Below are positions 9,991-40,487 of a stretch of DNA of 42,007 nucleotides, in pieces. Every line of letters begins with the position of its first letter. The stretch's first letter is position 1. The notes below the pieces were generated by a model, which worked only from the letters and a program-made list of their open reading frames with translations, had not been told where the DNA came from and did no database searches. The DNA is from Candidatus Terrybacteria bacterium (GTDB lineage: Bacteria; Patescibacteriota; Minisyncoccia; UBA9983): the NCBI GenBank assembly GCA_016208535.1, contig JACQXW010000010.1, positions 1 through 42,007 on the forward strand, in the 5' to 3' direction. The translations under genes were made by a program, and so were the position numbers.

Positions 9991-10040
9991 TTCACACCTC
10001 CTTTCTTCTTTTCTATTCTATATAAATTATATCAAAAGGC

Positions 10041-12397: not shown

Positions 12398-12405
12398 AAA
12401 TTTTT

Positions 12406-12490: not shown

Positions 12491-12505
12491 TTTGAGTTTT
12501 TTAGT

Positions 12506-12739: not shown

Positions 12740-12803
12740 ATTATTTCGAAAACGCGACTTACAAAATTAGGATGTGCACCACCGAGTGGTGCACAAATAT
12801 GCA

Positions 12804-12831
12804 TTGTAAATTTTATCTCTGGGTTTATAAT
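12804..12831 (+). promoter_or_regulatory. promoter TTGTAA-N16-TATAAT, 7 nt before the ATG
   Basis: TTGTAAattttatctctgggttTATAATaaactcaATG. Confidence 0.55.
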
Positions 12832-12838
12832 AAACTCA

Positions 12839-13231
12839 ATGAATGGCGCGGAAAAAATTGAATCTGCGGAGCAGGAGATTGAGGCCTTGAAAAAAAGGAT
12901 TACTGAATTAGAGGCGGCCTCGGTTGGCAAAGAAAGGCCAGAGATTATCAGAGAGGCGATAAAAGAGCATGCAGAGAAAATTCCCAAGGAGATTCTAGGA
13001 GAACCTCACAGGCTTTTGCCCGAGGAAATTAAGGCGCAGGCCGAGCGCATCTCCGGGTTAAAAACTGCTGAGGAGCCTCACCAGCGTCAAGTGGCGGAAC
13101 TTTTGCAGTTTGCCCAAGATAAAGGCATTCTCAATGCCGTTTCCATTATCAAAGAAATTAACGATCCTCATCTTGAGGATGATTTTCACGACGCCCTAGC
13201 GCAATTTTTCCAAGGCATAAAAAATGTTTGA
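12839..13231 (+). CDS. hypothetical coiled-coil protein
   Basis: 130-aa ORF whose stop overlaps the start of the downstream ATPase by 8 nt. Confidence 0.5.
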   Translation: MNGAEKIESAEQEIEALKKRITELEAASVGKERPEIIREAIKEHAEKIPKEILGEPHRLLPEEIKAQAERISGLKTAEEPHQRQVAELLQFAQDKGILNAVSIIKEINDPHLEDDFHDALAQFFQGIKNV

Positions 13232-15614
13232 TTATTTTTATATTTTTTTGATAATTAGCGTTCTCGTCATTGCCGGGATTTTTGGCCTGTTTTTTTACAT
13301 CAGCCGTCAGAGAAAAAATCGGATTCTCCGCAGTCTCAATTTTGTTCTTTATGAAATAACCTTGCCTCAAGAAAAGCCGAAAGAGGGAGAGAAAAATTTC
13401 AAGGAACTGATTGCGCCAATGGAGCAGTTTTACAGCGGAATGTTCAGTATCGGATCCTATTTTATTCTAGAGATTGGTTTGCCGGCAATGGGCAAGGAGA
13501 TTGTTTTTTACGCGGCAGTAGAAAGGAGCCGGAGTTTGCTTTTTGAAAAACAGATCCAGGGCCTTTTTCCTCATGCCAGTTTGAAAATCAAAAAAGAGGA
13601 CTATAACATCTTCAGGCCCCAGGGTTTTTCCCTTGGCTCCTTTGCAAAACTAAAGAGAGAGGAGATTTTGCCGATTAAGACCTATGATAAATTTGAATCC
13701 GACCCCCTGCAGGTAATCATCAACACTTTTTCCAAACTTCAGGCTCAGGGCGAGGGCGCGGCTTTGCAGGTTGTGGTTTGTCCGGCAAATGAAAGCGTTA
13801 TCAAAAAATCAAAAACAGTTAGCGCTGAGGCGCGCAAGGGCAAATCTCTGTCAAAGATATTGTATGATTACGAGCATGTGGGCAAGGGAGTGATGAGGGA
13901 ATTCTGGAATTTAATCTTTGGCTATTCTGAACCAAAAAAAGAGGAGCAAAAGCCGATTGACGAAGAATTGGTAAAACTTCTGGAGGCAAAGGCCTCAGCC
14001 ATGATGGCGCAAGTCAACCTCCGGCTCCTGGCCTCTTCAGAAAATAAAGAAAAAACAGAATCTATTTTGACAGAATTGGAAAGCGCCTTTTCTCAATTTG
14101 AAGAGGCCCAGGGAAATGGCTTTAAATTTATAAAGCCCAAGGCTAAAAAATTAAAAGAACTTTTTTATAATTTCTCTTTTAGAATTCCGGACGCTAAAAA
14201 TACCATTGTTTTGAATACCGCTGAGCTGGCCTCTGTTTTTCATTTTCCTCTTGGTGTTGCTGCCGGTGCCGCGCCTCAGTTGAAATATGTCAAGACAAAA
14301 GAGGCGCCTCCGCCTTTGAATCTAGCGCTAAGAGGTCTTTTACTTGGACAAAATGTTTATCGCGGCGAGGATTCCAAAGTTTATATGACAGAAAGCGACC
14401 GCAGGCGGCATTTTTACATCATTGGCCAGACCGGCACCGGCAAATCCGTGCTTTTGAAAAATATGATTGTTCAGGATATTGAGGCAGGCAAGGGAGTTTG
14501 TTTTATTGACCCCCATGGCTCTGACTTGCAGGAAATTTTATCCCGCATTCCGGCCTCGCGGGCTGACGATGTGATTTATTTCAATCCCGCGGACACGGCC
14601 AGACCCATGGGTTTGAATATGCTGGAATACGATGTCAGATATCCGGAGCAAAAAACTTTTATCGTCAACGAACTGCTTGGCATCTTTAACAAACTTTTTG
14701 ATATGAAGACAGCTGGCGGGCCGATGTTTGAGCAGTATTTCAGGAACTCCACCTTATTGGTGATGGAAGATCCAGAATCAGGCAACACTCTTTTTGAAGT
14801 GGCTAGAGTTTTGGCTGACAAGCCGTTTCGCGAACATAAACTTTCCCGCTGCAATAATCCTATTGTGAAATCTTTCTGGAAGGAGGTGGCTGAGAAGGCA
14901 GGGGGGGAGGCGTCGCTGCAGAATATGGTTCCCTATATCACCAGCAAGTTTGATAATTTCTTGGCCAATGACATTATGCGGTTGGTCATCAGCCAAGAAA
15001 AATCATCTTTCAATTTCCGGCAGGTGATGGACGAGGGCAAGATTCTTCTAGTTAATCTTTCCAAGGGCAGGCTGGGGGACTTGAATGCCAATCTCTTGGG
15101 TTTGATTATTGTGGGCAAACTTTTGATGGCCTCGCTTTCGCGCGTGGATGTAGCAGAGGAGCAGAGAAAAGATTTTTATCTTTATATTGACGAATTCCAG
15201 AACGTGACCACTGATTCCATTGCCACCATTCTTTCAGAGGCGAGAAAGTATAAGCTTGATTTAACTATAGCTCACCAGTTCATCGGCCAGTTGGCTGAGG
15301 AAATCAAAAAGGCGGTTTTCGGCAATGTGGGCTCAATGGCGGCTTTTCGAGTTGGCGCAGAGGACGCTGAATTTTTGGAAAAGCAATTTGAGCCGGTTTT
15401 TAACGCCTATGATTTAATAAATATTGATAATTACAACGCCTATTTGAAGATTTTGATTGATGGTCAGGTTTCCCGGCCTTTCAGTATCCAGACTTTGCCT
15501 TTCCAGAAAGGTGATTTATCTGTTGCCGAAAAAATCACTGAACTTTCCTCTCTTAAATACGGCCGCCCGCGGGAACAAGTGGAGGCAGAGATAAAGAAGC
15601 GATATGAGAAGTAA
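13224..15614 (+). CDS. membrane-anchored P-loop ATPase, TraD/VirD4/TraG-like (type IV coupling-protein superfamily)
   Basis: 796 aa with an N-terminal TM. Walker A is HFYIIGQTGTGKSVL, followed by ...CFIDPHGS.... The Walker B-like motif is FYLYIDEFQNV, followed by ...LTIAHQFIGQL.... Confidence 0.7.
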   Translation: MFDYFYIFLIISVLVIAGIFGLFFYISRQRKNRILRSLNFVLYEITLPQEKPKEGEKNFKELIAPMEQFYSGMFSIGSYFILEIGLPAMGKEIVFYAAVERSRSLLFEKQIQGLFPHASLKIKKEDYNIFRPQGFSLGSFAKLKREEILPIKTYDKFESDPLQVIINTFSKLQAQGEGAALQVVVCPANESVIKKSKTVSAEARKGKSLSKILYDYEHVGKGVMREFWNLIFGYSEPKKEEQKPIDEELVKLLEAKASAMMAQVNLRLLASSENKEKTESILTELESAFSQFEEAQGNGFKFIKPKAKKLKELFYNFSFRIPDAKNTIVLNTAELASVFHFPLGVAAGAAPQLKYVKTKEAPPPLNLALRGLLLGQNVYRGEDSKVYMTESDRRRHFYIIGQTGTGKSVLLKNMIVQDIEAGKGVCFIDPHGSDLQEILSRIPASRADDVIYFNPADTARPMGLNMLEYDVRYPEQKTFIVNELLGIFNKLFDMKTAGGPMFEQYFRNSTLLVMEDPESGNTLFEVARVLADKPFREHKLSRCNNPIVKSFWKEVAEKAGGEASLQNMVPYITSKFDNFLANDIMRLVISQEKSSFNFRQVMDEGKILLVNLSKGRLGDLNANLLGLIIVGKLLMASLSRVDVAEEQRKDFYLYIDEFQNVTTDSIATILSEARKYKLDLTIAHQFIGQLAEEIKKAVFGNVGSMAAFRVGAEDAEFLEKQFEPVFNAYDLINIDNYNAYLKILIDGQVSRPFSIQTLPFQKGDLSVAEKITELSSLKYGRPREQVEAEIKKRYEK

Positions 15615-15731
15615 AAATCATTGATTTTTTGTTTTTCTTTATGATAATATAAAAATATGCTTACAGAATTTTTAAACATAAAGATTGGGACAATGCTTAA
15701 ATACGACCGACCCGCTCTCTCGAAAAATAGC

Positions 15732-15757
15732 AAAAACGCCCCCCTAGGCGTTTTTTT
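15732..15757 (+). terminator. intrinsic terminator
   Basis: AAAAACGCC-cccta-GGCGTTTTTTT. Confidence 0.6.
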
Positions 15758-15951
15758 ATTCACATCTTTTCCTTGATTTTCTTTTTAAAAATGGTTTACA
15801 TATTTTGCGATCGCAAAAAACGTGAACCATTTTTGTTTTAATGGATTAATGGATTAATCCAAGAAGAGACCTTAGAAGTTTCGTGTTCTTGACAAAAAAA
15901 GAATCTTTGGTTCTTTAAAATAAATAAAAAATATGAATAAGGAGGAGAACA

Positions 15952-16737
15952 TTGAAAGTAATAATATTGGTTTTATTTGCAGTTGCATTGCCTTTTACGG
16001 CTTTAGCATCTGAAACTGATTTTTATTTTCAGGTTCAAAGTCTTGACTGGAGAGAATATGACCTTAACGACAAGCAGCTTGTAAAAGAATCAGGACCCAT
16101 TTTTGGCATGGGATACACAGGTAAATACTATATCCCCAAGCCTTTGGTTTTAAAGCCAAGGATTGAACTTTTTGGGGGTGTGGTAGATTACGATGGCCAG
16201 ACCTGGGGTGGCGATCCTGTATCAGCTGAAACAGGGTTTCTAGGGGTTAAATTGGAAGCAGATTTAGGTTTAAATTTTCCAATAACTCTTGATTTTCCAT
16301 TGGAAAACAAAAGGTTTTCAATAGAACCTTTTGCAGGCCTGGGTAATAGACAATGGACAAGACACACCGGCTATTTTGAGGACTGGAACATTTTTTATAG
16401 TCGTTTTGGGCTCCGTGTTGTAATGGTGGAGGAGAGCGATAAAAATGAATTTTTTGCCGAGGGAGCGTTAAAACTCCCGATTTCCAACAAAATGACGGCA
16501 GACCTGACTGATTTGGGATTTAGTAAGATCACGCTCAGGCCCGGTAAGAAACCATCTTTTTACATTGAAGGAGGGATTAGGCTCAGTAAATTCAAAATAA
16601 GCCTATTTTACGAGGGTTTAAGATTTCTAAAGGCTCCTGATGTGGATTTGGGGACTAGGGACGGGCAGCAGTGGTTTTGTTATCAACCAGAATCAAAAGC
16701 GGATATCTACGGATTAAACCTTGGATATTCGTTTTAA
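15952..16737 (+). CDS. signal-peptide protein with outer-membrane beta-barrel-like features
   Basis: 261 aa with a TTG start 6 nt after AAGGAGG (15939-15945). Signal MKVIILVLFAVALPFTALA|SE. Alternating hydrophobic strands (FGMGYTGKYYI, IELFGGVVDY, GFLGVKLEADLGLNF, ISLFYEGLRF) and a C-terminus ...YGLNLGYSF ending in Phe. Confidence 0.55.
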   Translation: MKVIILVLFAVALPFTALASETDFYFQVQSLDWREYDLNDKQLVKESGPIFGMGYTGKYYIPKPLVLKPRIELFGGVVDYDGQTWGGDPVSAETGFLGVKLEADLGLNFPITLDFPLENKRFSIEPFAGLGNRQWTRHTGYFEDWNIFYSRFGLRVVMVEESDKNEFFAEGALKLPISNKMTADLTDLGFSKITLRPGKKPSFYIEGGIRLSKFKISLFYEGLRFLKAPDVDLGTRDGQQWFCYQPESKADIYGLNLGYSF

Positions 16738-16765
16738 AGAGGAGGATATATTCCTCCTCTTTTTA
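16738..16765 (+). terminator. intrinsic terminator
   Basis: AGAGGAGGA-tatat-TCCTCCTCT followed by TTTTT. Confidence 0.7.
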
Positions 16766-16792
16766 TTTTAGAAAAAATATTTTAAAAAAAAA

Positions 16793-16841
16793 TTATCCAC
16801 AAAAAAATTTGCTTTGCAAAATTTTTTTCATGGGGTATGAT
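16793..16841 (+). promoter_or_regulatory. TTATCCACA (16793-16801) followed by the nrdD promoter TTTGCA-N17-TATGAT
   Basis: TTATCCACAaaaaaatttgcTTTGCAaaatttttttcatggggTATGATaaaagtatcttATG. Confidence 0.5.
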
Positions 16842-16852
16842 AAAAGTATCTT

Positions 16853-18991
16853 ATGGCAAAAATTTCTAAAAAAATCAAAGCCCCGAAAAAAATCACGAAG
16901 AGAGACGGCCGGGTTGTTGATTTTGACCAGAATAAAATCACCAAAGCCATTCATAAGGCTCTGACAGCCTCTGGCCAGGGCGATGGAAAAGAGTCAAAAA
17001 AGGTTTCTGACCGCGTAATCAGCCTTATAAATAGGCGTTTTAAGAAGGAGGAGGTTCCTAATGTTGAGGAGGTTCAGGATATTGTGGAAGAGGTCTTGAT
17101 TCTAGAGGGCTATGTGGAAACAGCCAAATCTTACATTCTTTACCGCGAACAGCGCCGCCGCATCCGAGAGCAAAAAACCGCGCTTGACGAGAGCCTGGAT
17201 ATGGTTGATAAATATCTTCGCAATGACGACTGGCAGGTGCGCGAAAACGCCAATATGTCTTTTTCTTTGCAGGGATTGCATCACTATATTATTTCCGCAG
17301 TGAGTAAAAAATACTGGCTGAACAAAATTTACACTCCGGAAATAAGAAAGGCGGTTGAAGAGGGCTCGTTCCATATTCATAATCTTGACTTTTTAGGGAC
17401 TTACTGCTGCGGTTGGGATTTGATGGATCTTTTGATGCGTGGTTTTGGTGGCGTGCTAGGTAAAGTAGAATCAAAGTCAGCCAAACATCTCAATGTCGCC
17501 TTGGGCCAGTTGGTTAATTTTTTCTATACCCTGCAGGGAGAATCAGCAGGCGCCCAGGCAGTGAGCAATTTTGACACCTTGCTGGCGCCATTTATAAGGT
17601 ATGACAATCTCACCTATCAGCAGGTGAAAAAGACCATCCAGACTTTTATTTTCAATTGCGCCATTCCCACTAGGGTTGGTTTTCAAACACCTTTTTTAAA
17701 TGTCACTTTGGATATAAAGCCGCCAGGGCATTTGGCAAGCCAGTCAGTTATCATTGGCGGCCAGCCTCAAAATGAAACCTACGGCGATTTTCAAGAAGAG
17801 ATGAATATTTTTAACAAAGCCTTTTTTGAGGTTATGGCCGAAGGCGACGCCAAGGGCCGGGTTTTCACATTTCCCATCCCCACCGTTAACATCACTAAAG
17901 ATTTTGATTGGGACAATCCTATTTTGCATGGCCTCTGGGAAATGACCGGGAAATACGGGGTACCTTATTTTGCCAATTTTATCAATTCTGAAATGAGCGC
18001 AGATGATGCTCGTTCCATGTGCTGCCGGTTGCGCCTGGACAACCGAGAACTTTATAAGCGCGGAGGAGGTCTTTTTGGTTCAGCCCCTTTGACCGGGTCA
18101 GTTGGCGTGATAACTATTAATCTGCCTCAAATCGGTTATCTTTCAAAAACCAAAAAAGATTTTTTTGACCGGCTTGGCAGGATGATGGATTTGGCAAAGG
18201 ACAGCTTGGAGATTAAGAGAAAGGTTCTTGATAATTTTATTGAAAGGGGACTTTATCCGTACTCCCGCTATTATCTGGAGTCGGTAAAGAGGATGAGGAA
18301 AAGTTATTGGGGAAATCATTTTTCCACCATTGGCCTGATTGGCATGAATGAATGTTTGCTTAATTTTATTGAGAAAGATATTACCGCCTCAGCCGGCCAG
18401 AAATTTAGCGTGGAGATTCTTGATTTTATGCGCGAGAGATTGGTTAAATACCAGGAAGAAACAGACAATCTTTATAATCTTGAGGCCACTCCGGCAGAGG
18501 GGACCAGCTACCGGCTGGCGAAAATAGACAAGGCGAGATTTCCGGACATTATCACAGCCGGCGAAAAAGAACCCTATTACACCAACTCCACCCATTTGCC
18601 GGTCGGATTCACAGACGATATTTTCGAGGCCCTGAAACTGCAGGATAATCTGCAGACCAAATATACCGGCGGCACCGTGCTTCACGGTTTTATCGGCGAA
18701 AAGATTTCTGACCACGAGATTATCAAGAGTATTCTTAAGAAAATTTTCAGCAAACATCATTTGCCTTATCTCACTTTTACGCCCACCTTCAGCATTTGTC
18801 CCAACCACGGTTATATCAGCGGAGAGCATTTCACCTGCCCGCACTGCCTCATTCCCCAACCTTGCGAGGTTTATTCGCGAGTGGTTGGGTATATCAGGCC
18901 CGTCCAACAGTGGCATGTGGGCAAACAAGAAGAGTATAATGAAAGAAAAGAATATGTTGTTGGCAGGACTGCAAAAATTCACCCTAATTGA
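16853..18991 (+). CDS. nrdD: anaerobic ribonucleoside-triphosphate reductase (class III) with N-terminal ATP-cone
   Basis: 712 aa. ATP-cone start (ITKRDGRVVDFDQNKI). C-terminal Zn site CPNHG...CPHC and the glycyl-radical motif ...YSRVVGYIRPV. Confidence 0.95.
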   Translation: MAKISKKIKAPKKITKRDGRVVDFDQNKITKAIHKALTASGQGDGKESKKVSDRVISLINRRFKKEEVPNVEEVQDIVEEVLILEGYVETAKSYILYREQRRRIREQKTALDESLDMVDKYLRNDDWQVRENANMSFSLQGLHHYIISAVSKKYWLNKIYTPEIRKAVEEGSFHIHNLDFLGTYCCGWDLMDLLMRGFGGVLGKVESKSAKHLNVALGQLVNFFYTLQGESAGAQAVSNFDTLLAPFIRYDNLTYQQVKKTIQTFIFNCAIPTRVGFQTPFLNVTLDIKPPGHLASQSVIIGGQPQNETYGDFQEEMNIFNKAFFEVMAEGDAKGRVFTFPIPTVNITKDFDWDNPILHGLWEMTGKYGVPYFANFINSEMSADDARSMCCRLRLDNRELYKRGGGLFGSAPLTGSVGVITINLPQIGYLSKTKKDFFDRLGRMMDLAKDSLEIKRKVLDNFIERGLYPYSRYYLESVKRMRKSYWGNHFSTIGLIGMNECLLNFIEKDITASAGQKFSVEILDFMRERLVKYQEETDNLYNLEATPAEGTSYRLAKIDKARFPDIITAGEKEPYYTNSTHLPVGFTDDIFEALKLQDNLQTKYTGGTVLHGFIGEKISDHEIIKSILKKIFSKHHLPYLTFTPTFSICPNHGYISGEHFTCPHCLIPQPCEVYSRVVGYIRPVQQWHVGKQEEYNERKEYVVGRTAKIHPN

Positions 18992-19661
18992 TTATCCGGG
19001 CAAAATCGCGGCCTCGGTTTTTACTGCTGGCTGCAATTTTTTGTGTTCTTTTTGTCACAACCCGGAATTAGTGGATCCTTTTTTGATGAAAAATCAGCCT
19101 GTATTGTCAGAAAGTGAAATTTTTGAATTTTTAGAAAGCCGAAGAGGGGATTTAGAGGGTGTATGCATTACCGGTGGCGAACCTACTTTGCATAAAGATT
19201 TGGCCGATTTTTTATCAAAGATAAAAAGTTTGGGTTTTAGCGTAAAATTGGATACAAACGGTAGCCATCCGGAGATGCTGGAAAAATTGATTAAAGAAAA
19301 ACTTGTTGATTATATCGCCATGGACATCAAGGCGCCGCTTGAAAGATATGAAGAAATAACAGGGGTGGCGAATTTAGAGAAAATTAAAAAGAGTGTTGAG
19401 TTGATAAAAAATTCCGATATTGATTACGAGTTTAGGACAACGGTTGTGCCAAGATTCCACAGCAAAGAAGATATCATTCAAATCGCCAAAGAAATTTCGT
19501 CTCCAAAGAAGCCGGCGAAAAAATATTTCCTTCAGCAGTTTTATTCCATAAAAACCTTGGACCCGGAATTAAAGAAAGAAAAAGGGTATTCAAAAGAAAT
19601 CCTCGCTGAATTCTGCGAGGCAGTGAAGCCGTACTTTGAGCACTGTGGCGTGCGTTATTGA
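18939..19661 (+). CDS. nrdG: anaerobic RNR activating protein (radical SAM)
   Basis: The CNFLCSFCHN (CxxxCxxC) cluster motif and GGEPTL. It overlaps the nrdD 3' end. The start is 18939 or 18954; the ORF-track start at 18885 is less likely. Confidence 0.9.
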   Translation: MKEKNMLLAGLQKFTLIDYPGKIAASVFTAGCNFLCSFCHNPELVDPFLMKNQPVLSESEIFEFLESRRGDLEGVCITGGEPTLHKDLADFLSKIKSLGFSVKLDTNGSHPEMLEKLIKEKLVDYIAMDIKAPLERYEEITGVANLEKIKKSVELIKNSDIDYEFRTTVVPRFHSKEDIIQIAKEISSPKKPAKKYFLQQFYSIKTLDPELKKEKGYSKEILAEFCEAVKPYFEHCGVRY

Positions 19662-19685
19662 CAAAAAATCTGTTTCGTGTATAAT
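19658..19685 (+). promoter_or_regulatory. near-consensus promoter TTGACA-N16-TATAAT
   Basis: TTGACAaaaaatctgtttcgtgTATAAT. It is followed by a ~60-nt leader with the hairpin TCCCGC-ctt-GCGGGA and an AAGGAG SD. Confidence 0.65.
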
Positions 19686-19749
19686 ACAATTAGTTCTTTT
19701 CAAATCCCGCCTTGCGGGACAAATACCAAATTTTAAGGAGAAAACTGCC

Positions 19750-20256
19750 ATGAAAAAGCAGAACACCTATGATCAGCAGACAGCAAAGTTTATCGCGACG
19801 GTATGCCAGAATATGCCCGAATTACCGGGCGACGTGATGCAGGGATGGATTCAAAACCCGAAAGGCCTCAAGAAATTTCTCAAAGGCCTCTGCCCACCGG
19901 AAACTTCATCAAGTTTCCCTGTCTGGAAAACCGTCACTCTCGGTATTCATAAATCAGTCGATGAATACCGCAAAGCTCTCGAAGCAAACGGATTCAAAAT
20001 AGGCAACTGGGGCGACGACATTCTCGGCAAATCGGCTTTCACCGTGAGCTCCGAAGAAACAGAAGTGGAATTAGTAAAAATGACCGTCGCAGAACTCGGA
20101 TTCAAAGACAGCGCGACCAGGAAAGATATCTACGAGAGAGCCATTGAGTTCGGGCTCAAGCTCTGCCCGAATGAAGTTGGTCCCGCCCTGCGCCTGCAAT
20201 ACACAGATCAGCCAATCCTTGGTCCTTTTTATTTTTTAAAATTTTTGCTAAACTAA
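19750..20256 (+). CDS. N-terminal part of a disrupted gene (candidate DGR target), unknown family
   Basis: The ATG lies 9 nt after AAGGAG. The region looks visibly more G+C-rich than its surroundings. The conserved-looking sequence ...CPNEVGPALRLQYTDQP is followed by low-complexity ILGPFYFLKFLLN and a stop. The ORF-track start at 19636 is rejected. Confidence 0.55.
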   Translation: MKKQNTYDQQTAKFIATVCQNMPELPGDVMQGWIQNPKGLKKFLKGLCPPETSSSFPVWKTVTLGIHKSVDEYRKALEANGFKIGNWGDDILGKSAFTVSSEETEVELVKMTVAELGFKDSATRKDIYERAIEFGLKLCPNEVGPALRLQYTDQPILGPFYFLKFLLN

Positions 20257-20442
20257 ATTTTAGATATTAGATTAATAAATGCCTGCGGTTACGGCTTCAG
20301 GCGATCGAATTCTGAAATCAGTAAAGCAGAGAACGGCATCGGGCACGCTTTATGCCGGAGTTGTTTATTGATTTCAAAAAAATAAAGAAACTTGGTATAA
20401 GGCGCTGGGGCATTAAAGATGCCGTATACGATTCAACTCTAA

Positions 20443-20658
20443 GAGTATTCGAAGAGTGGTGGCATAGATGGCGTCTTATACATTACTGACTCCAATGGCA
20501 ACCTCAATGTGTTTGAAGTGGAACGGAATAGCGATGGCTTATGGCTTAACGGCAACAACGGCAATCCTGACAACTTGTGGAACGCTGACAACCAGTGGGT
20601 TTTCTCTCGCGGCAACTCTCTTTATTTTTTCCCCGCTCTTCGCGGGGTTTTTAATTAA
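20443..20658 (+). other. open frame without start codon: C-terminal fragment of the disrupted gene; Asn-codon-rich VR/TR-like segment
   Basis: Same frame as the 19750 ATG. It reads ...GIDGVLYITDSNGNLNVFEVERNSDGLWLNGNNGNPDNLWNADNQWVFSRGNSLYFF..., with 8 AAC and 4 AAT codons in about 47 codons. Confidence 0.5.
20631..20652 (+). terminator. GC hairpin plus T-run at the end of the VR/TR-like segment
   Basis: CCCCGC-tcttc-GCGGGG followed by TTTTT. The palindrome TTAATTAA that follows supplies the stop codons of both convergent reading frames. Confidence 0.6.
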
Positions 20659-21023
20659 GCAGTTGTTTTTGCCATCCACCCAGTATCCTGCCAATTTCAT
20701 CCAAATATTCAGAAAAGACAATATATTTTTTATTATCCAAAGATTTTATTTCCCAGGAAATTTGCAGAAAAAACTTCAAAAGGTCCAGTTTTGAAATGGC
20801 TTTTTGTATGTACGGAGTTTTTAAGTTTTTATTCAATCGGCTTGCTATAAAAATCAACTCAGCGATTTCTATTATTAAACTATCAATCTTAATTCCCAGC
20901 GTGTAGCGCGAATCTTTCGGAAAGTGCGGAATAAATTCATGCCACAGCTTATATAACGCAATAATACAAATAATTATTGTTAAATTTTGTCGGGGGGGGG
21001 GGCGTACTGGTGAAATTTTTCAT
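20651..21023 (-). pseudogene. avd: Avd-like four-helix-bundle protein (DGR accessory), apparent frameshift in a C11/G11 tract
   Basis: The open frame reads ...LYKLWHEFIPHFPKDSRYTLGIKIDSLIIEIAELIFIASRLNK...KLDLLKFFLQISWEIKSLDNKKYIVFSEYLDEIGRILGGWQKQLLN. The only in-frame start is the TTG at 20857 (68 aa), which would remove the first helices. The ATG at 21023 comes into frame, giving 123 aa, if the homopolymer were 10 nt rather than 11. Confidence 0.55.
20992..21002. repeat. homopolymeric G11 tract
   Basis: gtcGGGGGGGGGGGcgtactgg, 39 nt upstream of the RT ATG and inside the avd 5' region. Confidence 0.9.
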
Positions 21024-21040
21024 ATACTAATAATACGCCC

Positions 21041-22027
21041 ATGATAAACAAATTCCAAACTAAATACGAAGAAATTATCTCTATCGAAAACCTCCTTTCG
21101 GCTTGGGAAGAATTTTTGAAAGGCAAAAGAAACAGAAAAGATGTTCAAGAATTTCAGTTTAATCTGATGGACAACATCCTTGCTCTCCATGGCAATCTCG
21201 CCAGCCGAACTTACAGCCACGGCGGATATAAAGCATTCAAAATCAACGACCCAAAGCCGAGAGATATCCACAAAGCAAGCGTGCGGGACAGATTGTTGCA
21301 TCACGCCATTTACAGGATTTTGTATCCGTATTTTGACAAAACATTCATAGCCGATTCTTTTTCCTGCAGATTAAAAAAGGGCACGCACAAAGCGATAAAC
21401 AGATTCAGAAAATTTGCCTACAAAACCGGCAAAAATGACACCAAAACCTGCTGGATTTTAAAATGCGATATCAAGAAGTTTTTTGCCAACATAGACCACA
21501 AAATTTTAATCAATGTCCTGCGTGAACATATTGTGGACGAAAACTTGATAAAACTTCTCAAAAACATCGTTGAAAGTTTTTCGTCAGCAAGAGATGGCAT
21601 CGGTTTACCATTAGGCAATCTCACTTCGCAACTTTTCGTAAATATTTACATGAACAAATTTGACCAATTTGTAAAACACAAATTGAAAGCGAAATATTAC
21701 ATCAGATATTGCGACGATTTTGTTGTTTTCTTGGAAAGTAAAAATTATGCGCAAAAATTGATTCCGCCCGTCAGGGAATTCCTAAACAAAGAGCTTAAAC
21801 TGGAACTGCATCCCGACAAAATTTCCGTCAAAACTCTGGCTTCCGGCGCCGACTTTCTCGGCTGGATTAATTTTACCGACCATAGAATTTTGAGAACCGC
21901 CACAAAAAGAAAAATATTCAGGAATATCAAGGAAAGGGGAGGTAAGGCGGAAACCGTCCAGTCGTATTTGGGGCTGATTAGGTGGGGGAATACAAGGAAA
22001 TTGCGTAATTTAATTGTAAAGTGTTGA
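21041..22027 (+). CDS. DGR-type reverse transcriptase
   Basis: 328 aa. ...NDPKPRDIHKASVRDRLLHHAIY...KCDIKKFFANIDH...GLPLGNLTSQLFVNIYMNKFDQFVKH...YIRYCDDFVVF...LELHPDKISV...ADFLGW. It carries the LGxxxSQ motif-4 signature and YxDD. Confidence 0.9.
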   Translation: MINKFQTKYEEIISIENLLSAWEEFLKGKRNRKDVQEFQFNLMDNILALHGNLASRTYSHGGYKAFKINDPKPRDIHKASVRDRLLHHAIYRILYPYFDKTFIADSFSCRLKKGTHKAINRFRKFAYKTGKNDTKTCWILKCDIKKFFANIDHKILINVLREHIVDENLIKLLKNIVESFSSARDGIGLPLGNLTSQLFVNIYMNKFDQFVKHKLKAKYYIRYCDDFVVFLESKNYAQKLIPPVREFLNKELKLELHPDKISVKTLASGADFLGWINFTDHRILRTATKRKIFRNIKERGGKAETVQSYLGLIRWGNTRKLRNLIVKC

Positions 22028-22059
22028 CATATTTTTGAGAGGATATATACTGTTAATCA

Positions 22060-22150
22060 TAAGGCCGTAGATGACAGGCGCTTGGGATAAAACAAGATAA
22101 GTCCTGTTGAGGTAAATTAACATTGCGGCTTTTGGGCCGTATTTTATTTT
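22060..22150 (+). promoter_or_regulatory. possible rplJ (L10) leader
   Basis: A ~120-nt untranslated spacer before rplJ with local pairings (GACAGG...CCTGTT). The assignment rests on position only. Confidence 0.25.
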
Positions 22151-22151
22151 T

Positions 22152-22676
22152 ATGTCCATAACAAAACAAAAAAAAGAGGAAATATTAGAGAATCTTAAAG
22201 AAAGCCTGAAAAAGGCGAAGATTGTGGTTTTTGTTAATTTTCATGGTCTAAGTGTTTCTCTTGCCAATGAACTAAGAAAGATTTTAAGGAGTATGGGCGT
22301 GACTTATATGGTTGCCAAGAAGACTTTGATTAAAAAAGCGCTGGAGACTTTTGGATTTTCCGGAGAGATGCCGAAATTGGAGGGAGAGATTGCCATCGCT
22401 GTTTCTGACAGCGATCCCCTTGCCTCAGCCAAGGCCTTGGAGCAGTTTGCGAAAAAAAATAAAGATAAAATCAAACTTGGTGGCGGAGTTTTTGAAAACA
22501 AATACATTGGAGCGGAAACCGTGATTATGCTTGCCAATATTCCAGCGCGCGAAATTTTACTTGGCCAATTAGTCAATATTATAAATTCGCCGATTCAGGG
22601 ATTGGTCGTAACCTTGAACGGATTAGTAAGCAAGTTTGTGAGAACTTTAGAAGAAATAGCAAAAAAGAAATCATAA
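22152..22676 (+). CDS. rplJ: 50S ribosomal protein L10
   Basis: 174 aa. The sequence (...VVFVNFHGLSVSLANELRKILR...YMVAKKTL) and its position upstream of rplL support the call. Confidence 0.9.
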   Translation: MSITKQKKEEILENLKESLKKAKIVVFVNFHGLSVSLANELRKILRSMGVTYMVAKKTLIKKALETFGFSGEMPKLEGEIAIAVSDSDPLASAKALEQFAKKNKDKIKLGGGVFENKYIGAETVIMLANIPAREILLGQLVNIINSPIQGLVVTLNGLVSKFVRTLEEIAKKKS

Positions 22677-22682
22677 AAATTT

Positions 22683-23063
22683 ATGTCAAAACATAAAGAT
22701 ATTATTGAAAAAATAGAGTCCATGAGCGTTCTTGAACTGCATGAATTAGTGAAGACGCTTGAGGAAAAATTCGGGGTGTCAGCGCAAGCTGTGGCAATGG
22801 CCGCACCTGCGGCAGGAGCCGTTTCAGCAGCCGGAGAAGAAAAAGAAGAAAAAACATCGTTTAATGTTGAACTCAAGAAGGCTGGGGAACAAAAAATCCA
22901 GGCCATTAAGGTTTTAAGGGATGCGCTTGGTCTGGGCCTTAAGGAGGCAAAGGATATGGTGGATGGCGCGCCAATTGTGGTGAAAGAAGGCATGGATAAA
23001 AAATCTGCCGAAGAACTGAAGACAAAACTTGAGGCAGCCGGTTGCGCAGTTGAACTGAAATAA
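22683..23063 (+). CDS. rplL: 50S ribosomal protein L7/L12
   Basis: 126 aa. ...[18 protein letters not shown]..., an Ala-rich hinge, and ...[27 protein letters not shown]...[11 protein letters not shown]. Confidence 0.95.
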
Positions 23064-23092
23064 GATATAATACTAACAAGTAGTTTAGTATT

Positions 23093-23716
23093 ATGACTGG
23101 TGTTTTGGATAAACTTTTTGGCTCGTCTGCTAGGGTTAAAATCATCCGTCTTTTTCTTTTGAACCCCGATACCTTATTCAATCTCAAGGAAATCTCTCGG
23201 CGCGCAAAGGTAATCCCAGCCTCTGCGCGGCGGGAGATTTTGGTTTTAAGAGATATTGGTTTTATCAAACAAACAAAGGAAAAAATAGACGAGATTATTA
23301 GATTAAAAAAAGGCAAAATTAAGAACAAAAAGAAAAAAATCCAAGGATTGAAACTCAATCAATTTTTTCCTTTTCTTCACCCCCTTAAAAATCTTGTTCT
23401 CAATAGCGTTCCCTTTAACAAAGAAAAACTGATGAAGAAAATAAATTCTCTTGGCAGGATGAAATTAATTGTTTTGGCGGGGATTTTTATCCAATCAGAC
23501 GAAAGCAGAACAGACCTTCTTTTGGTGGCTGATTCCATTAATAACAGCGGCCTGCAAAGAGTTTTAAAAGATATTGAGGCAAAAATAGGAAGAGAGATTG
23601 TTTACGCAATTTTCAACACAAAAGAATTTTTGTACCGTCTCGGCATGTATGACCGCTTCATCCGTGATGTTCTTGACTCCCCGCACGAAAAGGCGGTTAA
23701 TAAATTGAATATTTAA
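23093..23716 (+). CDS. hypothetical protein with N-terminal winged-helix-like DNA-binding region
   Basis: 207 aa. ...SSARVKIIRLFLLNPDTLFNLKEISRRAKVIPASARREILVLRDIGFI resembles an ArsR/MarR-like wHTH. Confidence 0.5.
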   Translation: MTGVLDKLFGSSARVKIIRLFLLNPDTLFNLKEISRRAKVIPASARREILVLRDIGFIKQTKEKIDEIIRLKKGKIKNKKKKIQGLKLNQFFPFLHPLKNLVLNSVPFNKEKLMKKINSLGRMKLIVLAGIFIQSDESRTDLLLVADSINNSGLQRVLKDIEAKIGREIVYAIFNTKEFLYRLGMYDRFIRDVLDSPHEKAVNKLNI

Positions 23717-23717
23717 C

Positions 23718-23789
23718 GGACACTTAGCTCAGTGGTAGAGCGCTTCGTTCACATCGAAGAGGTCACAGGTTCGAGCCCTGTAGTGTTCA
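23718..23789 (+). tRNA. tRNA-Val (anticodon CAC)
   Basis: Acceptor GGACACT/AGTGTTC (one G-U pair), D-arm GCTC-AGTGGTA-GAGC, anticodon stem CTTCG/CGAAG with loop TTCACAT, T-arm CACAG-GTTCGAG-CCTGT-like. Confidence 0.85.
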
Positions 23790-24508: not shown

Positions 24509-24580
24509 TTATCCACAGCAACCGAGCACATAGATTATGTGCTCGGTTGACTTGTTTTTAGGAGATATTTATTTTATACT
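24509..24580 (+). promoter_or_regulatory. promoter module copy 1: TTATCCACA - palindrome CCGAGCACA-tagatta-TGTGCTCGG - TTGACT ... TATACT
   Basis: Positions 24509-24560 match 25609-25660 except for the 7-nt palindrome centre. A TATTTT box lies 17 nt after the TTGACT (24547-24552). Alternatively, TTGTTT-N17-TATACT sits 7 nt before the hicB ATG. Confidence 0.6.
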
Positions 24581-24587
24581 GAAATCA

Positions 24588-24842
24588 ATGAAAAAAAGAA
24601 CAGATCAATATTATATAATTTACGAACGAGACGAGAAAAAGGGATATATTGCTTCTGCGCCGGCGATTCCCGGTTGTGTTATATATGGAAAAACCTTAAA
24701 AGAGGCGCATAAAAATATTTATAGTGCCATAAAAGAATGTTTAGAAGTAATCCAAGAATTTAAAGGAAATTTACCAAAAGAAACCATAAAGCCTGAAGTT
24801 ATAAGGAAATTTTCTTTTATAAAAATTCCTGAATATGCCTAA
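24588..24842 (+). CDS. hicB: HicB-family antitoxin
   Basis: Begins at MKKRTDQYYIIYERDEKKGYIASAPAIPGCVIYGKTLKEAHKNIYSAIKECLE (UPF0150/HicB pattern). The ORF-track start at 24537 lies in the promoter palindrome. Confidence 0.75.
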   Translation: MKKRTDQYYIIYERDEKKGYIASAPAIPGCVIYGKTLKEAHKNIYSAIKECLEVIQEFKGNLPKETIKPEVIRKFSFIKIPEYA

Positions 24843-25920: not shown

Positions 25921-29358
<3,438 letters not shown>

Positions 29359-29431
29359 TCCTATTAGGAAATTTGGATATCTGCCCTGTCGCTCGCGAGC
29401 GACAGGGTCTGTAAAATAGAGCCCGGAATTT

Positions 29432-29531
29432 TGGCGGCTTGGCGCCACGGATCCACCCGTTCCCATTTCGAACACGGAAGTGAAACGTGGTAGCGGCGAT
29501 GATACTCAAAAGGGAAAGTAGCTAGCCGCCA
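29432..29531 (+). rRNA. rrf: 5S rRNA (short, about 100 nt)
   Basis: TGGCGGC...CCACCCGTTCCCATTTCGAACACGGAAGTGAAAC...GCCGCCA. The helix IV/V region appears shortened. An outer stem CCCGGAAT/ATTCCGGG plus a T-run follows. Confidence 0.8.
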
Positions 29532-29577
29532 GTATTCCGGGCTTTATTTTTTTCTAAATTATTCTATTATTAATTTA

Positions 29578-36323: not shown

Positions 36324-36545
36324 ATGAAAGGAGAATTTCAATTAAAAGTAAGGAGAGGCATTTTTACAGATGACGACGTGCATGGGATTATAGAAATAAT
36401 CCTGGCGACGAAGGAGGCGGAGGTAAAAGTCGTTGATGGCAAAATTGTACTTATTTGTACTATCGAAAACCTCAACGATATAAAAAACAAGCTTAGAAAG
36501 TATGACGATTTAATAGATTTTAACTTTGTAAAGCGGGTGGAATAG
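36324..36545 (+). CDS. hypothetical protein
   Basis: 73-aa ORF. AAGGAGG (36311-36317) lies 6 nt upstream, with a TTGCAA-N17-TATAAT promoter further upstream and a terminator hairpin AAGCGGG/CCCGCTT downstream. Confidence 0.5.
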   Translation: MKGEFQLKVRRGIFTDDDVHGIIEIILATKEAEVKVVDGKIVLICTIENLNDIKNKLRKYDDLIDFNFVKRVE

Positions 36546-36563
36546 CCCGCTTTCTTTTTGGCC

Positions 36564-36591
36564 TTGACAGGCGATTTGACAGGTATATAAT
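36564..36591 (+). promoter_or_regulatory. 16S rRNA promoter TTGACA-N16-TATAAT
   Basis: TTGACAggcgatttgacaggtaTATAAT, about 105 nt upstream of the 16S 5' end. Confidence 0.65.
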
Positions 36592-38074
36592 TAAAATATA
36601 AACTAAATATTACTCGAACCTTGAAAAATGAATATTGATTCATTACGTGCATATTATTTTTTCTTTTGTTCCGTTCGATCCCGCTTTTAGCGGGATTTAT
36701 TTGAGAGTTTGATCCTGGCTCAGGACGAACGCTGGCGGCGTGGAGAAGGCATGCAAGTCATACGGATCAATTTTTGTAGCAATATAAAAATTGGTCAGTG
36801 GCGAACGAGTCAGTAACACGTAGAAACGTACCCAAAAGTCGGGCATAATTCCGCGAAAGCGGGACTAATTCCCGATGGTTCTCGCAAGAGTAAAGGAGTA
36901 ATCCGCTTTTGGATCGGTCTGCGGGCTATCAGCTAGTTGGCGGGGTAAGAGCCCACCAAGGCGATGACGGCTAGGAGGCGTGAGAGCGTGACCTCCGACG
37001 ATGGCACTGCGACACGGGCCATACACCTACGGGTGGCAGCAGTCGAGAGTCTTCCACAATGGGCGAAAGCCTGATGGAGCGACGCCGCGTGAATGATGAA
37101 GGACTTCGGTCTGTAAAGTTCTTTTATCTATGAAAAATCTTACCCGCCTTTGGCGGGTGAAATGATATTAGTAGATGAATAAGGGGTTGCTAAACTCGTG
37201 CCAGCAGCAGCGGTAAGACGAGTACCCCAAGCGTTGTCCGGAATTACTGGGCGTAAAGGGTGTGTAGGGGGTTGAGTTAGTCTTGTTTTAAATATTCCGG
37301 CTTAACCGGAAAAATGAACAGGAAACGGCTTAACTTGGAGGATGTGAGAGGTATGCGGAACTCATGGTGTAGGGGTGAAATCCGTTGATATCATGGGGAA
37401 CACCAAAGGCGAAGGCAGCATACTGGCGCATTCCTGACCCTGAAACACGAAAGCGTGGGCATAAAAAAGGATTAGATACCCTTGTATTCCACGCCCTAAA
37501 CGATGTTCTCTAGCTTTCCGAAGTATCGACCCTTTGGGAGGCGAAGCTAACGCGTTAAGAGAACCGCCTGGGAAGTACGAGCGCAAGCTTAAAACTCAAA
37601 GGAATAGACGGGGACTTGCACAAGCGGTGGATCATGTGGTTTAATTCGACGATAAACGAAGAACCTTACCAGGGCTTGAAACCTAATCGAATATCAGAGG
37701 AAACTTTGATAGTTCTCACAAGGAACGGTTGGGCAGGTGATGCATGGCTGTTGTCAGTTCGTGGTTTGAATTGTTCCCTTAAGTGGGGCAACGAACGCAA
37801 CCCTTGTTGCCTGTTACAAGTGTCAGGCAAGACTGCCCCGTTATACGGGGAGGAAGGAGAGGACGACACCAAGTCAGCATGTCCCTTTGACGTCCTGGGC
37901 TACACACATGATACAATGGGGCCGACAATGGGTCGCAAAGCCGAAAGGCGGAGCAAACCCCACCAAACGGTCTCTCAGTTCGGATTGAGGTCTGCAACTC
38001 GACCTCATGAAGTTGGAATCGCTAGTAATCGCGGGTCAGCTATACCGCGGTGAATACGTTCTCAAGTCTTGTAC

Positions 38075-38916
38075 TCGGGTCGCTGTGCGATCCTATAAAT
38101 TAGTCCGTTAAAATCGGGCCAGAAAGAGCGCAATTTTCTGAAGCAAAATTGCAGGTCTATCCCCGCGAGGGGACGACCGAAGGGCGAAATTAGCGTTTCG
38201 TAGCTTGAATAACAGTTGTGGCGTGGTATATTGGTTATCCTTCGAGTACCAGGAGAAGCCATTGCGTTAAAAAAAGTATACTACGTGTAGTGTTATCGAG
38301 ATGCGAAAGAAATGTTTATAGGGTTACCACAGGAGATCTTGCATAATTCCTCGATGTTTGCTAACATCGAGAGTATAAGGGCGAGTAATTGTCCTTAAAA
38401 TGTTATGCAAGAAGTCAGCAGAGTTCATAGTACCAAAAAGGCAGATAGACGATTAAATTCTAAATTAAAACTACCTTTTGGGAAGGAACGAATCCAAAGA
38501 AAAAAGTTAAATCCACATTATGTTAGCGGTTTTATTGACGGAGAAGGATCTTTTTCGGTCAGTATCGGGCGTCATAAAACTTTGCGTCGGGGGTTTGAAG
38601 TCAGATGATCGATACGGATGGTATCCTCACGCAAAATACAAAATCACTAGCATATGGGATATGAACAAATACCTTTTTCCTTTTCTTGACAGATATCCTC
38701 TGCAAGCCAAAAAAGCAAAAGTATATAAGCTTTTTAGAGAAATTGTTATAATGGTTTGTAATAAAGAACATTTGAGCGATGGAGGATTCAAGAAAATTGT
38801 AAAACTCCGCGATAAAATTCGGAGTATGGGGAAAAAGGCAAAAACTTTTGGAAACCGCTAGGGTGCGGGAAAACCGCTTGCCCAGTGGTGTGAGATTCGT
38901 CTGAGGCGAAATCTCA
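38075..38916 (+). mobile_element. intron-like insertion in 16S rRNA carrying a degenerate LAGLIDADG homing-endonuclease gene
   Basis: The exon joint restores TCTTGTAC|ATACCGCCCGTCAC (E. coli CTTGTACACACCGCCCGTCAC, about position 1395). Boundaries are good to +/-2 nt. The intron class is not determinable by eye. Confidence 0.7.
38405..38861 (+). pseudogene. LAGLIDADG homing endonuclease, frameshifted/internally deleted
   Basis: ORF 38405-38608 contains YVSGFIDGEGSFSVSIG and ends ...GFEVR*. A second frame (to 38861) continues ...DDRYGWYPHAKYKITS...FLDRYPLQAKKAKVYKLFREIV... Confidence 0.65.
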
Positions 38917-39264
38917 ATACCGCCCGTCACGTCAAGGAAGCCGAGAATACCCGATGCCGCGTCTTGACGCGGTTACGGTAAGTTCGGTAACAGGGACGAA
39001 GTCGTAACAAGGCACGGCTAGGGGAACCTGGTCGTGGATTAATTAATCTAATTCTCTTCTGCCATCCGCCAATTGGCGGAGCAAGAAGGGGACTAGGTCG
39101 ATTCAGTTTAGGCTGAGTATAAAGGCATTGGTCTTGGAGCCTTGCCCGCCTCTGGTGGGTTAAAGTTGAGACCATAAGAGAACGGAACAAAATAAAGAAT
39201 AGTATGCAAAATAGCCGCTGGATTTTCTGCGGCTTTTTTGTTATATTTATAAAATAAAATTTGC

Positions 39265-39336
39265 GCGCGTGTGGCTCAGTGGTAGAGCACGTTCCTGATA
39301 AGAACGGGGTCGAAGGTTCGATTCCTTCCACGCGCA
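39265..39336 (+). tRNA. tRNA-Ile (anticodon GAT)
   Basis: Acceptor GCGCGTG/CACGCGC, D-arm GCTC-AGTGGTA-GAGC, anticodon stem CGTTC/GAACG with loop CTGATAA, T-arm GAAGG-TTCGATT-CCTTC. Confidence 0.85.
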
Positions 39337-39397
39337 TTTGATTTTTTAAAAGTTTTTGTTAATCTGAATCTAGAAAGCAATTAAAAAAGGAGGAAAT

Positions 39398-39544
39398 ATG
39401 AAAATACTATATCTTTATCTTATTTTGTTGATATTTTTGTTAATTTCTGGATTATTTTTTGTCATAGGAATAAGAAAAATTCAAGCGGGTATTCATCGCT
39501 TGGAGGAAGGAGTAAAGATTTTAAAAAGGTACTTTGAAAGATAA
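39398..39544 (+). CDS. 48-aa small membrane protein
   Basis: AAGGAGG (39387-39393) lies 4 nt upstream. Hydrophobic N-terminus MKILYLYLILLIFLLISGLFFVIGI. A terminator follows directly. Confidence 0.45.
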   Translation: MKILYLYLILLIFLLISGLFFVIGIRKIQAGIHRLEEGVKILKRYFER

Positions 39545-39565
39545 GGGGCAAAATTTGCCCCTTTT
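39545..39565 (+). terminator. intrinsic terminator
   Basis: GGGGCAAA-a-TTTGCCCC followed by TTTT. Confidence 0.7.
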
Positions 39566-39605
39566 ATTTTTGTAATTTTTAAAGTAAGATTAAAAAGAAA
39601 ATTTT

Positions 39606-40487
39606 ATGTTGGAGGTTAAAGAAAACGAACCACTAAAAAATCATTCCACCTTTAGAATCGGCGGGTTGGCGAGGTATTTTGCGGTTGCGAAAACAAAAGA
39701 GGAAATTTTGGAGGTGATAAATTTTGCAAAAGAAAAAAACTTGCCCTATTTTGTCTTTGGCAGGGGAAGCAATATATTATTTCGCGATGAAAGTTTTGAT
39801 GGTTTGGCGATAAAAATTGAAAATTGGAAATTGAAAATTGAAAATTCTAATGTCATTGTCGGCTCTGGTGTTTTGTTTTCCGAACTGATTTTAAAATCAG
39901 TTGAAGCTGGACTGACTGGCCTTGAATGGGGCGCGGGGATACCGGGCACTGTCGGCGGTTGCGTGGCTGGCAATTGCGGGGCCTATGGCCATAATATTTC
40001 AGAGTCAGTGGAAAAAGTAATTACTTTAGACAAAGAATATTCAAAAGAAGAATGCGGATTTCTTTATCGTGATAGTAAATTTAAAAATCAGCCAACTGGC
40101 GAAAAAGAGATAATTTTAGAAATAGAACTAAAATTAGAAAAAGGCGATAAAGAAAAAAGCAAGGAGGAGATAAAAAAAATTCTCATTGACCGCAAAGAAA
40201 AAAATCCTCCCTATCCATCCATCGGTTGCATCTTTAAAAATTTCAAATCTCAAAACGCAAATCTCAAAACTATTACGGCGCGGTCGCTTATTGAAGAATG
40301 CGGATTAAAAGGCAGGCGAATCGGCTCCGCCAACGGCGGAGCGCAAGTTTCCGAACAGCATCCCAATTTTATTGTCAATCTCGGTAACGCCCGGGCAGAG
40401 GAGGTGCTTGAACTTATCAATCTCTGCAAACAAAAAGTCAAAGAAAAATTTAATCTGGACTTAGAGGAGGAGATTGTGATAATATAA
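39606..40487 (+). CDS. murB: UDP-N-acetylenolpyruvoylglucosamine reductase
   Basis: 293 aa. ...LKNHSTFRIGG...FGRGSNILF...GLEWGAGIPGTVGG...GCIFKN... Confidence 0.9.
   Translation: MLEVKENEPLKNHSTFRIGGLARYFAVAKTKEEILEVINFAKEKNLPYFVFGRGSNILFRDESFDGLAIKIENWKLKIENSNVIVGSGVLFSELILKSVEAGLTGLEWGAGIPGTVGGCVAGNCGAYGHNISESVEKVITLDKEYSKEECGFLYRDSKFKNQPTGEKEIILEIELKLEKGDKEKSKEEIKKILIDRKEKNPPYPSIGCIFKNFKSQNANLKTITARSLIEECGLKGRRIGSANGGAQVSEQHPNFIVNLGNARAEEVLELINLCKQKVKEKFNLDLEEEIVII

Follow-up and report, generated by a model that had tools for sequence, protein, structure and literature searches.

[quoted passage not shown]

Pairing between the Shine–Dalgarno (SD) sequence of an mRNA and the anti-SD of the 16S rRNA is the textbook mode of start-site selection in bacteria, and the anti-SD itself – found just after helix 45 (h45) – is among the most conserved of rRNA sequences and nearly invariant in Bacteria. 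Outside this domain, mitochondrial small-subunit rRNA and archaea with leaderless mRNAs, such as Nanoarchaeia, have no anti-SD after helix 45, and their mRNAs are leaderless or have short leaders. The likeness between these systems and the locus described here draws also on PMC10582724 and PMC10783764; they are, however, unrelated lineages, and leaderless transcription in our case is suggested by the positions of −10 boxes.

Exceptions among bacteria have been described too. Tsurumaki et al. (2022, RNA 28:1041, PMC9297842) detected CCTCCT in just 48% of the 16S rRNA genes of Parcubacteria, its loss overlapping with the group that lacks uL1; this subgroup also has reduced ribosomes and rRNA genes with insertions. 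PMC10783764 (PLoS One 2024) describes an SD-scarce class lacking CCUCC that includes Ca. Campbellbacteria, Wolfebacteria, Absconditabacteria and Peregrinibacteria, alongside tiny-genome endosymbionts and Flavobacteriia. In tiny genomes, anti-SD loss is frequent and polyphyletic (Nikolaeva et al., bioRxiv 10.1101/755876, where Lim 2012 and Amin 2018 are cited for such loss in tiny-genome symbionts). In the SD-less Bacteroidia, represented by Flavobacterium johnsoniae, initiation tracks low mRNA structure and upstream adenines at −3, −6, −12 and −13 (Baez 2019, PMC6847099; Jha 2021, PMC7797042). Finally, most CPR are reported to have lost the GTPase Era, whose recognition of GAUCACCUCC is part of 30S assembly (PMC10582724).

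The DNA considered here – a stretch of 42,007 nucleotides, referred to below as the window – comes from the metagenome-assembled genome (MAG) of an uncultured bacterium of Candidatus Terrybacteria, part of the Parcubacteria group of the Patescibacteria and thus of the same radiation as the subgroup of PMC9297842, with which it shares a 16S 3' end without CCTCCT. That study gives the presence or absence of the motif alone, unlike the present analysis, and does not name Terrybacteria in its main text. With the SD-scarce class of PMC10783764, the window shares both an unstructured region 3' of helix 45 without a CCUCC core and a scarcity of genes whose start codon is preceded by an SD-type interaction, although that class was delimited by hybridisation energies in complete genomes and ours rests on motif and spacing counts in 42 kb and in the loci of relatives; neither Ca. 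Terrybacteria nor this genome is among the examples shown there. Like the Bacteroidia, the organism has genes without SDs, low structure at starts and upstream A (with peaks here at −3, −5/−6 and −10). The Bacteroidia, however, keep a canonical anti-SD that is occluded by bS21, bS18 and bS6 and used for rpsU autoregulation, whereas here the sequence itself is gone, and none of these three proteins is encoded in the window; sequestration of the Bacteroidia type thus does not apply. As in the tiny-genome symbionts of 10.1101/755876, CCUCCU is lost or degenerate; those losses are tied to genome reduction and ribosomal protein loss and concern mostly insect endosymbionts and Mollicutes, whereas ours concerns a free-standing environmental CPR lineage and a very deep clade.

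The 16S rRNA of the window ends in ...GGGGAACCTGGTCGTGGAT on the + strand, with GGAT at 39036–39039. Helix 45 is intact at 39013–39036 and folds with its GGAA loop; around the end of the gene the strand reads GAAGTCGTAACAAGGCACGGCTAGGGGAACCTGGTCGTGGAT, continuing from 39040 onward as TAATTAATCTAATTCTCTTC. Between 36000 and 40000 on the + strand, CCTCC occurs only once, at 36992, deep in the body of the 16S, and it is found neither between the tail and the tRNA-Ile (GAT) gene at 39265–39336 (+) nor anywhere downstream of 36992 within the precursor bracketed by the processing stem described below. That a given 5-mer should be missing from some 225 nt could well happen by chance; the weight of the observation comes from the near invariance of this position in Bacteria. 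The initial annotation of this DNA had noted that the tail after GGAT lacks CCTCC as far as the tRNA, which both direct reading and the CCTCC scan bear out; its premise, the near universality of the anti-SD, was right as well, with the Parcubacteria exception already in print. The span it gave for the tail also holds, with the small correction that the gene it belongs to is split by an intron. In the comparison with an SSU covariance model that it had proposed, the terminal GAUCACCUCCUUU of the Rfam model found no counterpart. The anti-SD of this 16S rRNA is truly lost.

The intron deserves a closer description, since it distorts the automatic annotation of the gene. Exon 1 (36697..38076, +; Rfam SSU_rRNA_bacteria, 1265 bits) ends at the junction ...CTTGTACTC and is followed by an 842-nt group II-like intron (38077..38918, +), inserted near E. 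coli 16S position 1396 and some 960 nt upstream of the 16S tail; it is the only intron in the gene. It contains a match to Rfam RF01998 (group-II-D1D4-1; 38374–38488, 51 bits), domain V/VI-like hairpins in its 3' part (38854–38916) and a degenerate LAGLIDADG endonuclease gene broken into two frames (38501–38608 and 38520–38861, the latter matching Pfam LAGLIDADG_1). Exon 2 (38919..39039, +) supplies the 3' strand of h44, h45 and the GAU that follows it. The concatenated exons align without gaps to the uninterrupted 16S of a related contig, L010. The Rfam SSU match, in contrast, skipped 131 model positions and forced the last 13 (GAUCACCUCCUUU) onto the intron sequence GAUCCUAUAAAUU at 38089–38101, so that its end coordinate of 38101 is an artefact of the interruption; the true 3' domain of the 16S is 38919–39039. 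Split BLAST matches show that the 16S genes of many relatives are likewise interrupted.

The window contains a single gene each for 16S, 23S and 5S rRNA, unlinked and in an unusual order: 23S (25921–29363) and 5S (29430–29534) lead, and a stretch of about 7 kb with protein genes (ftsW, glyA, a folD-like ORF, secD and secF) separates them from the 16S and tRNA-Ile. The 23S match spans 3443 nt against a model of 2925 positions, which corresponds to roughly 500 nt of insertions.

The 16S is flanked by its own transcription and processing signals. A terminator-like hairpin found by hairpin scan (36530–36553) precedes a σ70-type promoter, TTGACA-16-TATAAT (36564..36591, +), that matches the consensus at 12 of 12 positions. 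The 29-nt leader arm of a long-range processing stem (36648..36676, +) is 90% complementary to its trailer arm (39180..39208, +), whose sequence GAACGGAACAAAAnAAAGAAT is conserved in relatives. Between h45 and this arm, folding places an AU-rich single-stranded tail, UAAUUA (39040..39045, +), in the slot that normally holds CACCUCCUUA; a first trailer hairpin of 22 bp (39046..39098, +), with CUCUUC (39054–39059) in its stem; and a second and third hairpin (39101–39118 and 39129–39174, together spanning 39101..39174, +). Past the trailer arm lies a terminator-like hairpin with a U6 run (39213..39239, +), recognised by reading and folding but not listed by a simple terminator scan, of which a cleaner equivalent is present in the relative L008. 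The fold of the whole trailer is far more stable than that of shuffled sequences (z = −6.2).

In single-sequence folds, h45 of the window is thus followed by nine unpaired nucleotides, GAUUAAUUA (39037–39045), and then by the 22-bp hairpin, and relatives that retain an anti-SD have 14 unpaired nucleotides, GAUCACCUCCUUUC, in the same slot, again followed by a hairpin. Relatives without it show an AU-rich unpaired stretch, a hairpin of lineage-specific sequence and then the conserved (U)AGGUCGGUUC. This comparison consists of 29 single-sequence folds, in 13 of which the minimum free energy (MFE) solution leaves no unpaired nucleotide after h45; an RNAalifold consensus of the MAFFT-aligned trailers recovered h45 alone, because the trailer hairpins differ too much in length. 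The architecture of slot and hairpin is kept in the clade, and the sequence alone is lost. From this anatomy, the mature 3' end of the 16S probably lies near 39040–39050.

The tail can be read in assemblies that are independent of the one analysed. With the 48-aa ORF located just 3' of tRNA-Ile, matching contigs were found among the Logan per-run assemblies: one of them (L064, 4 samples) is 100% identical to 38005–39844 of the window, and another, from a different run and representing a strain variant (L063), differs at three positions (38093, 39088 and 39713) that all lie outside the tail. The tail reads GGATTAATTAATCTAATTCTCTTC in both. The change at 39088 (G>A) weakens the pair G39088–C39056 of the trailer hairpin in the MFE fold. 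All independent Logan assemblies break at 38000/38005, in a universally conserved stretch of the 16S just upstream of the intron, probably owing to graph branching with the 16S of other species rather than to heterogeneity within the organism.

The loss extends far beyond this genome. Species-representative genomes were scanned for the sequence of h45, with transitions permitted and no constraint on the tail. The matches were 10 Patescibacteria MAGs, nine of which lack CCTCC after GGAT; the tail of the tenth, L002, is GGATCACCTCCTTTCT. An equivalent scan of metagenomes added 45 contigs, for a total of 56 16S 3' ends sharing this helix 45. Three of the 56 carry the canonical tail CACCTCCTT (L002, L025 and L041), two carry CATCTCCTT (L023 and L051, also given as CATCTCCTTT), and the remaining 51 have no anti-SD. 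Identical tails without anti-SD recur among many unrelated assemblies, as befits a variant typical of the lineage rather than an error of annotation or assembly.

Taken together, these tails form a graded series that runs from CACCTCCTT through CATCTCCTT and CATTTCTTT to CATTTAATT, CATTACATT or CAATAAATT, and ends in TAATT..., while in the window's own clade remnants of the (T/A)ATCCAA type are followed by TAATTTAAA, TAATTAATC and AACATTCAA. Neighbour-joining of the 16S exons, a rough tree for which E. coli served as outgroup, separates two deep clades without anti-SD, with the anti-SD-bearing L041 outside both; the almost intact L051 is nested among differently eroded tails, which argues that decay ran in parallel in sub-lineages after a shared relaxation of constraint. 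The 16S of the window is 87–91% identical to those of Ca. Paceibacterota contigs (L010/L019 and L054) and only about 74–77% identical to those of the CAT-type clade, so that the loss spans a very deep group.

If ribosomes with an anti-SD are missing, genes should bear the mark of their absence, and this was assessed first at gene starts. The test took ORFs of at least 100 aa with their candidate starts, scored an SD 4-mer or 5-mer ending 4–12 nt upstream, and used start-like triplets inside genes as controls. Two simpler procedures – counting SDs ahead of the starts of the longest ORFs, and scoring the duplex energy formed with the anti-SD – did not separate E. coli starts from controls and were replaced by this motif-plus-spacing test, which was calibrated on annotated E. 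coli starts (61% with an SD 4-mer); gene starts here are predicted rather than annotated, but the same procedure recovers the E. coli signal. With the best of the candidate starts, an SD 4-mer precedes 48% of E. coli genes (control 10%), 22% of those in the window (control 22%) and 24% of those in the first eight relatives without anti-SD (control 27%). With the first ATG, the figures are 41% against 4% for E. coli and 9% against 11% for 164 genes from 30 non-redundant loci without anti-SD. In this latter set the frequency of G upstream of starts has a flat profile that declines towards the start, and there is no purine-rich peak; in E. coli, G peaks at 0.53 at −11. No GGAG or GAGG lies upstream of groES, groEL, rplJ, rplL, glyA, nrdD or ftsW, all genes with N-termini verified by Pfam.

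Selection against SD-like motifs inside genes is missing as well. Relative to a codon-shuffled expectation, SD-like 5-mers in coding sequence are depleted in E. coli (observed/expected 0.41, z −4.1), but not in the clade without anti-SD (1.15, z +2.9) or in the window (1.26, z +2.2). SDs are therefore neither selected at starts nor selected against within genes, as would be expected if anti-SD-bearing ribosomes do not exist, and a substantial pool of such ribosomes is contradicted. In relatives with an intact anti-SD (L041, L025 and L002) or with one mismatch in it (L023 and L051), 11 and 15 genes, respectively, showed no SD enrichment. This hints, from a sample too small for a conclusion, that the use of SDs was abandoned before the anti-SD decayed.

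What these organisms use in place of the SD may be glimpsed from the regions around their starts. The MFE of the segment from −25 to +25 is −4.7 kcal/mol at starts, compared with −6.9 kcal/mol in gene interiors (p ~1e-14), and leaders are rich in A. In the clade without anti-SD, 24% of genes have a −10-like box whose end lies 4–12 nt ahead of the ATG, and 27% of those in the window do, in comparison with 7% for interior ATGs, 9% at 20–28 nt upstream and 3% in E. coli; the enrichment was measured in AT-rich DNA and amounts to about 2.7-fold over the upstream control. TATAAT-like boxes lie close to the ATG at, for example, 7843 (groES), 12839 and 21041. Judging from the placement of these boxes, a sizeable fraction of mRNAs may be leaderless or have short leaders.

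Strong SDs are not wholly absent from the window. Six ORFs have an AAGGAGG-type SD at ideal spacing, five of them small (27–168 aa): one of 27 aa (7712–7792, −); a zinc-ribbon-like one of 56 aa with its own terminator (9820–9990, −); one of 261 aa with a TTG start (15952–16737, +); one of 168 aa (19750–20256, +); one of 73 aa with its own promoter and terminator (36324–36545, +); and a transmembrane one of 48 aa with a terminator (39398–39544, +). A candidate orphan anti-SD RNA at 9995–10003 (+, CACCTCCTT) proved to be merely the complement of the SD of the minus-strand 56-aa ORF with its terminator, and was rejected. Searches of Pfam and PHROGs with the ORFs of 48, 56, 73, 168 and 261 aa returned no match, tblastn of all six against the fetched loci of relatives found no homologues, and the only database match of the 73-aa ORF was itself, a hypothetical protein of Candidatus Terrybacteria bacterium.

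In the non-genic DNA of the window there are four sites with a strong SD plus ATG where 0.75 are expected (P = 0.008), and in 22 other loci without anti-SD there are three where 4.1 are expected; the excess is modest and specific to this genome. SD-like hexamers are dense in the window: there are 116 of them, whereas 42 kb of E. coli DNA contain 27. Chance, helped by this density, or recent acquisition is the likely source of the SD-led ORFs. Textbook SDs on four to six mostly orphan ORFs are nonetheless not explained by a complete absence of SD recognition. Should neither chance nor recent import from SD-using donors account for them, one might imagine that they are read by a factor other than the 16S tail, or by minor specialised ribosomes (from a second rrs, for instance) that serve a small set of genes. 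We regard this as very improbable; if true, the set would constitute a naturally occurring orthogonal translation channel.

Two of these orphan ORFs lie in a stretch between tRNA-Ser (12405–12491) and tRNA-Val (23718–23789) that also contains a T4SS coupling-protein-like ATPase (13224–15614), nrdD with its radical-SAM activase and a reverse transcriptase, and part of this stretch (12405–23789) may be mobile DNA. The reverse-transcriptase gene (RVT_1, 328 aa; 21041–22027) sits directly upstream of rplJ–rplL (22152–23063), in the place normally occupied by rplK–rplA, an arrangement compatible with the uL1-lacking Parcubacteria, though rplA could be elsewhere in the genome. Genes of toxin–antitoxin type are found at 713–964 (−), 4216–4581 (+), 7280–7606 (+) and 24537–24842 (+), and comprise ParE-like, AbiEii-like, MazF/PemK-like and HicB-like antitoxin types.

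How, then, should the missing anti-SD be explained? The most mundane answer would be an error or a dead gene. Ribosomal RNA genes are notorious break points of metagenome assemblies, and the Logan contigs do break within this 16S at 38000/38005, so one could suppose a local misassembly or chimeric join at the 3' end of a gene that truly ends GGATCACCTCCTT. Yet L064 and L063 run unbroken from 38005 through the intron, exon 2, tail, trailer and tRNA-Ile into murB with an identical tail, the trailer arm at 39180–39208 pairs with the leader at 36648–36676 of the same gene, and the anti-SD is missing too from 51 of the 56 sequences of this group, which come from unrelated samples; an artefact of this kind is hardly credible. 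Nor does it seem conceivable, except at the very margin, that this rrs is a decaying pseudogene, invaded by an intron and eroded at its tail, in spite of the 842-nt insertion with its broken homing-endonuclease gene and the separation of the 16S from 23S–5S. Such intron-bearing or unlinked rRNA genes are common among relatives, the Rfam match extends across all domains of the SSU, the perfect promoter and the processing stem stand beside an intact h45 and decoding-centre sequence, and relatives with as little as about 74% 16S identity have kept the same tail state. The initial annotation had itself entertained an aberrant copy or a misassembly, which is rejected in view of the same tail in assemblies from other runs, the 12/12 promoter and the intact leader–trailer stem.

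A real gene with a real tail could still be complemented, if the anti-SD were supplied by a second, normal rrs, by a 3' fragment encoded in trans or by further splicing. The gene does hold one intron (38077–38918), exact copies of CACCTCCTT occur on the + strand at 5078 and 9995, and a few ORFs have strong SDs; but the copy at 5078 falls within a 722-aa ORF, that at 9995 is the SD complement already mentioned, each related contig yielded a single match to the search pattern, and the precursor within the processing stem has no CCTCC downstream of 36992. Replacement or splicing of the tail from outside the locus, another suggestion of the initial annotation, founders on this last point, since the stem brackets the whole gene. 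Most telling, SDs are not used at gene starts and SD-like motifs are not avoided within genes, and we consider an external supply very unlikely. Equally slim are the chances that the new tail acts as a substitute anti-SD, pairing with some other motif through its AU-rich UUAAUUAA, or with GGAGG through UCUUC (39055–39059). Organisms without CCUCC but with binding between 3' tail and leader are reported in PMC10783764; besides, UUAAUUAA is complementary to itself, leaders here have an AT-rich composition, and 5'-UCUUC-3' could pair with GGAGG by means of two G–U pairs. Across 37 leaders, however, the mean longest complementarity to the tail is 4.27 nt, against 4.29 ± 0.28 nt for shuffled tails, so that the preferential upstream pairing of category iii of that paper is not seen in them; the tail sequence varies across the clade instead of being conserved, the stem of the first trailer hairpin engages CUCUUC in pairing (with equivalent stems of different sequence in L001 and L005), and starts lack a purine-rich peak.

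This leaves the first alternative named in the initial annotation, a mature 16S rRNA without anti-SD, which the clade pattern, the identical independent assemblies and the lack of both SD usage and SD avoidance all favour. We consider it highly probable that the constraint on the tail was relaxed, and that neutral, AT-biased decay followed, in a lineage whose translation starts independently of SDs. The abandonment of SDs would have come first and the decay of the anti-SD later. The reported loss from most CPR of Era, the assembly GTPase that reads GAUCACCUCC, would have removed a second constraint on the tail, if it applies to this genome. Under AT-biased mutation, the tail would then have drifted from CACCUCCUU to unrelated AU-rich sequences, with the unpaired slot that follows helix 45 and the processing hairpins beyond it retained. 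Start codons would be chosen via leaders that are rich in A and weakly structured, and a sizeable minority of genes would probably be expressed from mRNAs that are leaderless or have very short leaders.

As anti-SD loss has already been published for Parcubacteria, the novelty of the phenomenon is low, and the loss itself opens no new question. What is contributed here is the make-up of the locus, the series of eroding tails and the signature in coding sequences; to the published presence or absence of the motif, the present analysis adds the processing stem, the statistics of SD usage and SD avoidance and the signal of leaderless mRNAs. A practical consequence is that gene finders that rely on SDs, and tools that annotate 16S 3' ends with SSU models, will misbehave on such genomes, as the Rfam end coordinate illustrates here. 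Organisms without an anti-SD are natural experiments in SD-free translation, of which this window – with its promoter, processing stem and independent assemblies – is a well-anchored example. Together with its relatives, it shows the stepwise decay of a tail no longer used: changes from C to U first, and then a drift towards AU-rich sequence, in parallel in different sub-lineages.
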